From contig JACKFI010000009.1 of assembly GCA_020632555.1 (NCBI GenBank), forward strand, positions 1,966 through 65,965: 64,000 bases of DNA, written 5' to 3'. Both the position numbers and the translations under genes were made by a program. Shown here in pieces: positions 15,291-19,676 of this stretch (positions within the stretch are counted from its first letter, which is position 1; the number at the start of each line of letters is the position of its first letter). The stretch is from Candidatus Omnitrophota bacterium. Its GTDB lineage: Bacteria > Omnitrophota > Gorgyraeia > Zapsychrales > JANLHA01. The notes under the pieces were generated by a model. It did no database searches. It was not told where the DNA came from and worked only from the letters and a program-made list of their open reading frames with translations.

Positions 15291-15347
15291 ATATCTTTCC
15301 TCTCATTTTCGCCTTACCAATATCTAACATCCATTTTAACCCCTGGA

Positions 15348-15396
15348 TTCCCGCTAAAAGCCCACCACAAAACATTGGTGGGTAAAATCGCGGGAA
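15348..15396 (-). other. Two-tier GC-rich stem-loop in the fabG-fabZ spacer (candidate structured RNA)
   Basis: TTCCCGC (15348-54) pairs with GCGGGAA (15390-96), and CCCACCA (15361-67) pairs with TGGTGGG (15376-82). The two stems are separated by a near-symmetric internal loop. Confidence 0.35.
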
Positions 15397-15413
15397 TGAC
15401 GGACGGGGCCACC

Positions 15414-15468
15414 CCCCAACATCCAACTTCCTACTCCAACCACCAACGTCTAACCTCTAACCACTAAC
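15414..15468 (-). repeat. About eight tandem heptamers ending in (C/T)AAC (minus strand GTTRGnn)
   Basis: The AAC/TAC ends fall at 15420, 15427, 15434, 15440, 15447, 15454, 15461 and 15468. All spacings are 7 nt except one of 6 nt. Confidence 0.4.
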
Positions 15469-15534
15469 GACCGAGGACGCAACGTCCGAGGGAGTGCCGA
15501 GCCCTCCGTGGCGAGGCCCCCTAGCCACCTGTTT

Positions 15535-16320: not shown

Positions 16321-17559
16321 TTAATCCACATACTTGCGCAAGACCATGCAAGAATTCGCCCCACTGGGCGCAAATCCAACCACCAAAACATTCTTTAAAT
16401 TCGCTTTCACACTGGTGTTAGCAATAATATTTAAATCACAATCTGGGTCAGGAACCTGATAATTGATCGTCGGCGGAATAAAATTCTCATATAAAGCCCC
16501 CAAAGCTGCCGCTGCCGAGAATCCCCCGGTGACACTATAACATTCGCCAACCATAGACTTAACCGAACTAATCGGAACTTTTGAAGCATAACTCCCAAAA
16601 ATTTCCTTAATCGCGGCACATTCAATTTTATCAGCCGCAACCGTCGAATTCGCATTCGCACAAATATAATCGATATCTGTCGTTAAAAGTCCCGCGTTAT
16701 CCAAAGCTTCTTTAATCGCAATTTTCAGACCCGTCGCCCGCGGATTATATTTATGCAAACGAAATGGATCAAAACAATACCCAAACGACGCAATTTCACC
16801 CAAAATCCGCGCCCCACGTGCTTTAGCATGTTCGTAATCTTCCATACAAAAAAGACACGCCCCTTCACCAAAAGTAATCCCGTTGCGTCGTTTATCAAAA
16901 GGACAATTGACAAATTGTGATCCTTCTTTAGCACCAGAAATAAATTTTAACGTATGAAAACCAAAATACGTATGCCAGCACAATTCTTCGACACCGCCAG
17001 CATAAATCACCTTGGCCCGATCCCATTGCAAAAAATTATACGCATAACTCATCGCATCCAAAGCGGCAGTAAATCCAGTGGATATCGTCGTGTTAAACCC
17101 TTTGATTTTGTGCCAAATCGAAACTTGGCTGGCTGGTGAGTTAATGACAGTATTGGGAAATAAAGCAGGATTAACATACCGAGGGCCTTCGCGCAATGTC
17201 ACTTCATCAAACTCAGCAATACTCTTCAAACTACCCAGCGTTGTGCCAACCGAAACACCCACATCATCTGTATTTTCTTCAGTAATTATAAAACCACTAT
17301 CATCAATAGCCAGTTTGGCCGACGAAACCATCAACTTGGTGCTGCGGTCCAGCGTGCGTAAACCCTTTTTGCCCATATAGGTTGTGGCATCAAAATCAAT
17401 GATTTCTCCGGCAATATCAACATTGAATTTTGACGCATCAAAAAGGGTAATTGGACGATAACCAACACGTCCTTCTTTGAGTCCTTGCCAATACTCTTGC
17501 CGGCTTTTGCCAACGCCGTTCAAAATTCCCAAACCGGTAATGACAATACGTTTTGACAT
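16321..17559 (-). CDS. Beta-ketoacyl synthase (FabF/KAS II)-like protein with a substituted catalytic triad
   Basis: Aligns colinearly by eye with E. coli FabF (MSKRIVITGLG..., GGVEE, KSMVGE...). Cys163 is replaced by Phe (TISTGFTAAL), His303 by Asn (CANANST) and His340 by Glu (VGECYS). Start taken at MSKR (17559). Confidence 0.8.
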   Translation of the reverse strand: MSKRIVITGLGILNGVGKSRQEYWQGLKEGRVGYRPITLFDASKFNVDIAGEIIDFDATTYMGKKGLRTLDRSTKLMVSSAKLAIDDSGFIITEENTDDVGVSVGTTLGSLKSIAEFDEVTLREGPRYVNPALFPNTVINSPASQVSIWHKIKGFNTTISTGFTAALDAMSYAYNFLQWDRAKVIYAGGVEELCWHTYFGFHTLKFISGAKEGSQFVNCPFDKRRNGITFGEGACLFCMEDYEHAKARGARILGEIASFGYCFDPFRLHKYNPRATGLKIAIKEALDNAGLLTTDIDYICANANSTVAADKIECAAIKEIFGSYASKVPISSVKSMVGECYSVTGGFSAAAALGALYENFIPPTINYQVPDPDCDLNIIANTSVKANLKNVLVVGFAPSGANSCMVLRKYVD

Positions 17560-17619
17560 AGCAACGATTATACTCAAATTCGATATAATTAACAATACTC
17601 CATAACATTAAGAATACTT

Positions 17620-19450: not shown

Positions 19451-19676
19451 TTTTGCCCGTACCCGCAACTGCTCTACGAGCTCGTCCTAAAAAGGACTCA
19501 CTCGATTTTATCTCTACACTAACTACGCACATTATTCGCTTGATCTTTTTGCCCGTACCCGCAACTGCTCTACGAGCTCGTCCTAAAAAGGACTCACTCG
19601 ATTTTATCTCTACACTAACTACGCACATTATTCGCTTGATCTTTTTGCCCGTACCCGCAACTGCTCTACGAGCTCG
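19451..19676. repeat. Perfect 96-bp tandem repeat, about 2.35 copies
   Basis: GCCCGTACCC recurs at 19455, 19551 and 19647. Units 19451-19546 and 19547-19642 are identical by eye. The repeat contains the last 16 codons, the stop and about 45 nt of 3' flank of the PHP gene. Confidence 0.9.

Follow-up and report, generated by a model that had tools for sequence, protein, structure and literature searches.

A 64,000-nucleotide stretch of contig JACKFI010000009.1 from a Candidatus Omnitrophota bacterium (hereafter the window) encodes a FabF-like ketosynthase (KS) homologue in which the entire Cys-His-His catalytic triad is replaced. We call this pseudo-ketosynthase KSmut, and use KS2 for the active ketosynthases of the amxFabF2 type. 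We consider it likely, with a probability of about 0.7, that KSmut is a non-catalytic, chain-length-factor-like subunit of a heterodimeric FabF, comparable to amxFabFmut of anammox bacteria, and that its partner is encoded elsewhere in the genome. Proteins of this kind are already known, though to date only from ladderane-producing anammox bacteria, the chain-length-factor-like role of amxFabFmut having been shown in 2026. What appears new is the Phe at the Cys position, the separation of KSmut from the gene of its partner, and the phylum-wide, apparently housekeeping context.

A FabF homologue without its catalytic triad

The triad columns were read from a MAFFT alignment that combines the window protein, E. 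coli FabF and 120 homologues from databases; the E. coli reference sequence agrees with the PDB alignments. The Cys163 column holds Phe in 120 of the 121 sequences and Tyr in one, the His303 column Asn in 114, Asp in 4 and Ser in 3, and the His340 column Glu in 118 and Asp in 3. For the window protein these are exactly the replacements, Phe, Asn and Glu, that a sequence-only reading had proposed from a hand alignment, and their conservation among orthologues points to purifying selection. The gate residue Phe400 is also replaced, by Pro in 119/121 sequences, whereas Lys335, Asp311 and Glu314 are invariant throughout the family. With the whole triad gone, KSmut is incapable of canonical Claisen condensation, as had been concluded before.

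The fold is nevertheless well preserved, in agreement with that same reading. Both ketoacyl-synthase domains (N- and C-terminal) are full-length by Pfam, and tblastn aligns residues 1–412 with E. coli FabF at 33% identity. An AlphaFold2 (AF2) monomer model (predicted local distance difference test score 88, predicted template modelling score 0.91) found B. subtilis FabF (4ls8) as its top match, with a template modelling (TM) score of 0.95, in a Foldseek search of a PDB set predating entry 9S5H. KSmut therefore resembles the canonical FabF homodimer in fold, length and the three retained residues Lys335, Asp311 and Glu314, but differs from it in the triad and the gate Phe, and it scores below the curated FabF cut-offs (TIGR03150 fabF, 357 bits against 493.75; PRK07314, 334.6 against 387). 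Polyketide KS and AmcF models gave only 125–138 bits, compared with the 357 bits of TIGR03150.

The triad loss itself, and nothing more, could suggest that KSmut is a decaying pseudogene or that the replacements are an alignment artefact, readings that we rejected and to which we give practically no weight. HMMER alignments of KSmut residues 2–410 with solved FabFs are in the same register as the MAFFT alignment, with one single-residue gap far from the triad, which rules out a missed indel that would restore Cys/His/His. The reading frame is intact, and the roughly 120 orthologues are full-length in every case listed (65–89% identity, 96–100% coverage) and come from many independent assemblies, so the gene is intact and under selection, and decay among orthologues is ruled out. 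Because the same triad replacements are kept in these orthologues, KSmut is neither a pseudogene nor the product of misalignment. It also diverges at the rate of its catalytic paralogue: in 55 pairs of genomes that encode both, KSmut averages 58.2% identity and KS2 57.0%, and the two diverge in a correlated manner (r = 0.53), so that the dead subunit is as constrained as the catalytic one.

Kinship with the anammox subunit amxFabFmut

The best solved relative of KSmut is chain C of PDB entry 9S5H (also 9S5I), with 388 bits and an E value of 5e-115, compared with 262 bits for the best FabF among the PDB matches, that of B. subtilis. Entry 9S5H is the amxFabF2/amxFabFmut heterodimer of Brocadia fulgida, from the putative ladderane Cluster I (bioRxiv 10.64898/2026.05.19.726425, May 2026), and its chain B is a second KS. 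With amxFabFmut the window protein shares 45% identity, with amxFabF2 33%. According to the preprint, amxFabFmut lacks the triad (Val or Thr stands in place of Cys, and Asn, Glu or Cys in place of His), has B. subtilis FabF as its closest structure, and is inactive alone, as is amxFabF2; no decarboxylation, condensation or cross-linking was detectable for amxFabFmut by itself. When co-expressed, the two proteins co-purify, decarboxylate malonyl-amxACP (amxACP being an acyl carrier protein, ACP) and make acetoacetyl-ACP. Residues Phe135, Thr138 and Val139 of amxFabFmut line the tunnel of the active subunit, mutation of Phe135 and Val139 shifted the chain-length preference, and a helix-loop-helix at 110–140 that is disordered in the amxFabFmut homodimer becomes ordered in the heterodimer. 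An electrostatic asymmetry of the interface was also reported. The authors present this as the first chain-length factor of a fatty-acid pathway and the cluster as unique to ladderane producers; the cluster also contains amxACP, amxFabZ, a homologue of phytoene dehydrogenase and a cobalamin radical S-adenosylmethionine (radical-SAM) enzyme (bioRxiv 10.64898/2026.05.19.726425). The inactivity of amxFabFmut had, as cited there, been predicted earlier by Rattray and co-workers.

KSmut and amxFabFmut (KustE3606, Broful02170) have in common the FabF fold and several derived states, namely Asn for His303, Glu for His340 (within a 'GEC' motif) and a Phe-Pro-Asn-Thr-Val segment. The tunnel residues F135, T138 and V139 do not vary among 120 KSmut sequences from Omnitrophota, and the window protein has them too; Phe134 and Val138 of KSmut are the counterparts of the anammox Phe135 and Val139. 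In a distance-based neighbour-joining tree of 38 sequences, all 17 KSmut-type proteins, amxFabFmut included, form one clade in 77.5% of 200 bootstraps, and amxFabF2 nests among the Omnitrophota KS2 proteins with weak support. The two proteins differ at the Cys position, which is Val or Thr in amxFabFmut (Val in B. fulgida) and Phe in the window, as well as in host, an anammox planctomycete for the one and an Omnitrophota bacterium for the other. They also differ in setting: amxFabFmut is encoded beside amxFabF2, whereas KSmut of the window follows the riboflavin operon in the company of FabG and FabZ. The sequence-only reading had considered that the protein might be a new scaffold or regulator, or might have been repurposed as something like a decarboxylase or thioesterase; the placement in the amxFabFmut clade points instead to the inactive half of a heterodimer resembling a KS and its chain-length factor.

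The AF2 model has low confidence only at residues ~111–140 and 200–220, a suggestive pattern, as these are the helix-loop-helix and its contact helix, the partner-contacting elements that are disordered in the amxFabFmut homodimer and ordered only in the heterodimer. Net charge over 110–140 and the helix 196–206 showed no asymmetry, a count that also fails on the B. fulgida pair.

Chain-length factors of type II polyketide synthases, for example ActI-ORF2 (actinorhodin) and Iga12 (ishigamide), are likewise inactive KS paralogues that shape the tunnel of an active KS within a heterodimer. They typically carry Gln at the Cys position and are encoded beside KS-alpha, whereas KSmut has Phe at that position, neither His and no adjacent KS, so the distinction drawn earlier between KSmut and the Gln-bearing factors stands. 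Since Gln and both histidines are absent, no priming decarboxylase chemistry is expected for KSmut, and an activity of the KS-Q or chain-length-factor type, which requires the two histidines, is unsupported. Membership in the polyketide chain-length-factor clade was considered and rejected, FabF models scoring far higher and no such factor occurring among the best 60 PDB matches; judged by sequence, the origin of KSmut is independent of that clade.

Gene order and the probable partner ketosynthase

Searches of species-representative genomes matched 287 stretches, and the best 80 of these, which were fetched, are all from Omnitrophota. The closest locus to the window among the 80 is that of the metagenome-assembled genome (MAG) HK-STAS-OMNI-2, at 91%. 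We tabulated the gene order around KSmut in 85 loci. The order found in the window, RibD-RibE-KSmut-FabG-FabZ-(MetY)-AcyP-LigA, occurs in 62 of them, none with a second KS in its flanks, and the KSmut-FabG-FabZ order is kept in most related loci whose contigs are long enough. About a dozen loci have the order LipB-KSmut-FabG-ACP-FabZ-KS2-(thioester reductase)-(CrtI-like), which in the complete genome of Ca. Velamenicoccus archaeovorus reads LipB-KSmut-FabG-ACP-FabZ-KS2-thioester reductase; other orders include ACP-KSmut-KS2-CrtI-like. Altogether KS2 adjoins KSmut in 16 loci, usually with an amxACP-like ACP. The Velamenicoccus KS2 matches amxFabF2 (9s5h_B) with 488 bits, compared with 341 bits for B. 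subtilis FabF, and retains the Cys-His-His triad and the gate Phe, as do all of the 186 KS2 homologues retrieved. Among the PDB matches of the Velamenicoccus ACP, amxACP structures take the first three places with a modest lead.

Both genes are present, on separate contigs, in the single-cell genome SAG AM-311-J20 (GCA_042571725.1). Its contig JBHPFN010000010 (L064) carries RibD-RibE-KSmut-FabG-FabZ, with a KSmut 62% identical to that of the window, and contig JBHPFN010000006 carries KS2 (P0254) after recG...yceD-rpmF-plsX-fabH-fabD. The position after rpmF-plsX-fabH-fabD recurs in L085, L087 and L089, which makes four loci in all, and the slot behind plsX-fabH-fabD is the usual position of fabF. 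Since the KS2-bearing clusters examined are without fabG, acpP and fabZ, the FabG and FabZ beside KSmut fit the role of housekeeping copies. The missing partner noted by the sequence-only reading is probably a matter of gene order in this lineage, as related Omnitrophota encode an amxFabF2-like KS either beside KSmut or elsewhere in the genome.

Related Omnitrophota genomes thus resemble anammox Cluster I in encoding an amxFabF2-like KS, an amxACP-like ACP, FabZ and a phytoene-desaturase-family protein, but differ from it in that the partner KS lies in a plsX-fabH-fabD housekeeping cluster. No cobalamin radical-SAM gene was found beside the module in any context read. Compared with the Cluster I gene set, the window offers only FabG and FabZ, to which its relatives add ACP, thioester reductase and a CrtI-family protein; neither a thioester reductase nor a CrtI-like gene was found in the 64 kb.

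By analogy with the solved B. fulgida complex, we propose that KSmut adopts the FabF fold around a dead active site, probably blocked by the Phe, and that it would be inactive alone and pair with the separately encoded, catalytically intact KS2. In such a heterodimer malonyl-ACP and acyl-ACP would be condensed at the KS2 site only, while KSmut would line the acyl tunnel of KS2 and help to set substrate length. The FabG and FabZ presumably co-transcribed with KSmut would catalyse the two reactions that come after condensation in the type II fatty-acid cycle. Initiation would probably be by FabH, which is encoded in the KS2 cluster, and not by decarboxylative priming as seen in vitro for the anammox pair. 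An ancestral module KSmut-FabG-ACP-FabZ-KS2 may have been split in the lineage of the window, with KSmut-FabG-FabZ placed behind the riboflavin genes and KS2 expected after rpmF-plsX-fabH-fabD elsewhere.

Several points weigh against this proposal. Searches of the whole 64 kb with E. coli and Omnitrophota queries found no second KS, ACP, FabH or FabD, which bears out the earlier remark that no active KS or ACP is adjacent. KSmut is unlinked from KS2 in 62 of the 85 loci, which is unusual for obligate heterodimer partners, and amxFabFmut of S. brodae crystallised as a homodimer (bioRxiv 10.64898/2026.05.19.726425). The heterodimer itself is an extrapolation from a homologue of only 45% identity, and Omnitrophota, seen here as contigs and loci only, may encode a further canonical FabF. 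Finally, Phe/Asn/Glu are nearly invariant and have not drifted among neutral residues, so that the altered pocket may have a function of its own. KSmut could on these grounds act alone, probably as a homodimer, either as an acyl-ACP scaffold or sensor for FabG and FabZ or as a hydrolase or decarboxylase with an Asn/Glu/Lys pocket. Such a role would suit the lack of linkage to any KS in the 62 loci, the window included, and the S. brodae crystal, as well as the conservation of Phe/Asn/Glu together with Lys335/Asp311/Glu314, which goes beyond what a merely dead site would need. We nevertheless think it improbable: the anammox homologue alone showed none of the three activities assayed and its dimer motif is disordered in the homodimer, both histidines of malonyl decarboxylation are missing from KSmut, the residues lining the partner's tunnel are invariant, and KS2 occurs beside KSmut in 16 loci and also in a genome with the arrangement of the window.

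Another possibility accepts the heterodimer but assigns the module to a special lipid (ladderane-like, a fatty alcohol or ether, or unusually desaturated), as has been assumed for Cluster I. In relatives KS2 is followed by a thioester reductase and one or two CrtI-family (phytoene-desaturase-like) oxidoreductases, Cluster I too holds a phytoene-dehydrogenase homologue, the ACP and FabZ have amxACP and amxFabZ as their nearest matches, and antiSMASH calls 'ladderane' clusters in Omnitrophota MAGs. Against these observations, KS2 takes the place of fabF behind rpmF-plsX-fabH-fabD in four loci, and a second fabG or fabZ was not seen in those clusters; conserved synteny places the window trio among housekeeping genes (rib operon, nusB, ligA); and a Cluster I-like cobalamin radical-SAM gene is lacking in the contexts read. 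We therefore regard a special-lipid role as less likely than not, and from its gene context the heterodimeric module apparently belongs to a housekeeping fatty-acid synthase.

Extending the heterodimer to the whole phylum is more tentative, and we would put it somewhat short of even odds. On this extension, an obligate KS2 and KSmut heterodimer would be the sole elongating ketosynthase of primary fatty-acid synthesis in Omnitrophota, and the FabF2/FabFmut/ACP/FabZ/desaturase-like part of Cluster I would be a general module shared with or acquired from Omnitrophota and not specific to ladderanes. Ladderane-specific chemistry would then be narrowed to the radical-SAM enzyme or enzymes. The pairing of a dead with an active KS occurs widely across Omnitrophota, frequently accompanied by an amxACP-like ACP, FabZ and a CrtI-family protein, which opposes its uniqueness to ladderane producers, and the housekeeping context calls into question the ladderane-producer specificity of the fatty-acid-synthase part of Cluster I. 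If this holds, a heterodimeric KS with a pseudo-enzyme subunit can serve primary lipid synthesis, comparison could help to tell the truly ladderane-specific genes of Cluster I from the others, and antiSMASH 'ladderane' calls in MAGs from outside the anammox bacteria would have a simple explanation. We found no description of the Omnitrophota KSmut family in the literature, and a survey paper on Omnitrophota does not discuss fatty-acid synthesis. One study in which antiSMASH labels clusters from Omnitrophota and other phyla as 'ladderane' left the label unexplained.

Neighbouring genes and other features

Coordinates of KSmut and of features near it in the window
Feature	Position	Strand	Basis or remark
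FabZ, 3-hydroxyacyl-ACP dehydratase, hot-dog fold, 144 amino acids	14856..15290	minus	FabA-like (Pfam); TIGR01750 170.3, above cut-off 155.15
FabG–FabZ spacer, 244 bp	15291-15534		Unusually long, G-rich
FabG-type 3-oxoacyl-ACP reductase, 250 amino acids	15535..16287	minus	adh_short_C2/KR domains (Pfam), FabG models
KSmut, FabF-fold pseudo-ketosynthase, 412 amino acids (MSKRIV...)	16321..17559	minus	Open reading frame, Pfam, triad Phe/Asn/Glu, gate Phe replaced by Pro
Promoter-like site TTGTTA-17-TATAAT	17567..17595	minus	10/12 consensus positions; weak; in the 197-bp ribE–KSmut spacer
Perfect tandem repeat of 96 bp, 2.4 copies	19451-19676		100% identical copies; between ribD and a PHP-domain gene

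The neighbours of KSmut are FabG and FabZ, as the sequence-only reading had it, by both Pfam and NCBIfam. FabG falls about 1.4 bits short of the TIGR01830 cut-off (296.4 against 297.75) but exceeds that of PRK12826.1-2 (253.6 against 222). FabZ has as its best PDB match the anammox amxFabZ (7qv0_A) with 136 bits, ordinary FabZs scoring slightly less at 125 bits. FabG begins 33 nt after the stop codon of KSmut, and the two genes are probably co-transcribed. Transcription could begin at the promoter-like site upstream of KSmut; in some relatives ribE overlaps KSmut, and read-through from the rib operon is therefore also possible.

The spacer between FabG and FabZ is far longer than the ~20–60 bp seen in relatives. 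It occupies the position of the ACP gene in Velamenicoccus-type loci; no ACP remnant was found in it by tblastn, nor any Rfam match. Apart from two matches of ~35 nt to one related locus (L028), it is not kept in relatives.

The surroundings of KS2 in other Omnitrophota have features of their own. Between fabD and KS2, in L085, L086, L087 and L089, lie two conserved genes for an HTH_17 protein and a four-helix-bundle protein like 23S_rRNA_IVP/bAvd, which fill the slot usual for fabG-acpP in bacterial fab clusters. Downstream of KS2 (L085, L087, L088, L089, L080, L081) recurs a set made up of a protein with a thioester-reductase domain, one or two oxidoreductases of the CrtI family, in some cases a nitroreductase-like protein, and histidine kinases with seven-transmembrane (7TM) and GAF domains; these genes may extend the module towards lipid modification and regulation. 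Some Omnitrophota have a third KS just downstream of KS2, which replaces the thioester reductase in the single-cell genome. It has ~436 amino acids, an intact Cys-His-His triad and 24–29% identity to KS2, and its two copies (L086, 12924-14234; L068, 14069-15349) form a clade of their own with 100% bootstrap support.

In 12 Velamenicoccus-type loci, L082 (8565-9505) and 11 more, KSmut is immediately preceded by LipB, an octanoyl transferase scoring above its curated cut-off. In L082, the sole locus checked for this, a small lipoyl-domain protein is encoded between LipB and KSmut. Because the anammox heterodimer and amxFabZ prefer C6–C8 substrates in vitro, a link of the KSmut module to octanoyl-ACP and lipoate supply is conceivable.

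Many GTDB-representative MAGs with an Omnitrophota-type locus (L004, L006, L007, L010, L012 and others) are titled 'uncultured Planctomycetales/Planctomycetia bacterium', and these titles are probably mislabels. One unit of the 96-bp repeat is partly conserved in close relatives (L006–L008), and the repeat gives rise to spurious repeated open reading frames on both strands. The G+C content of the window is ~40%, its GC skew is uniformly and strongly negative (-0.15 to -0.30) across 1-64000, and nearly all long open reading frames are on the minus strand, in keeping with a single replichore whose genes are strongly co-oriented.

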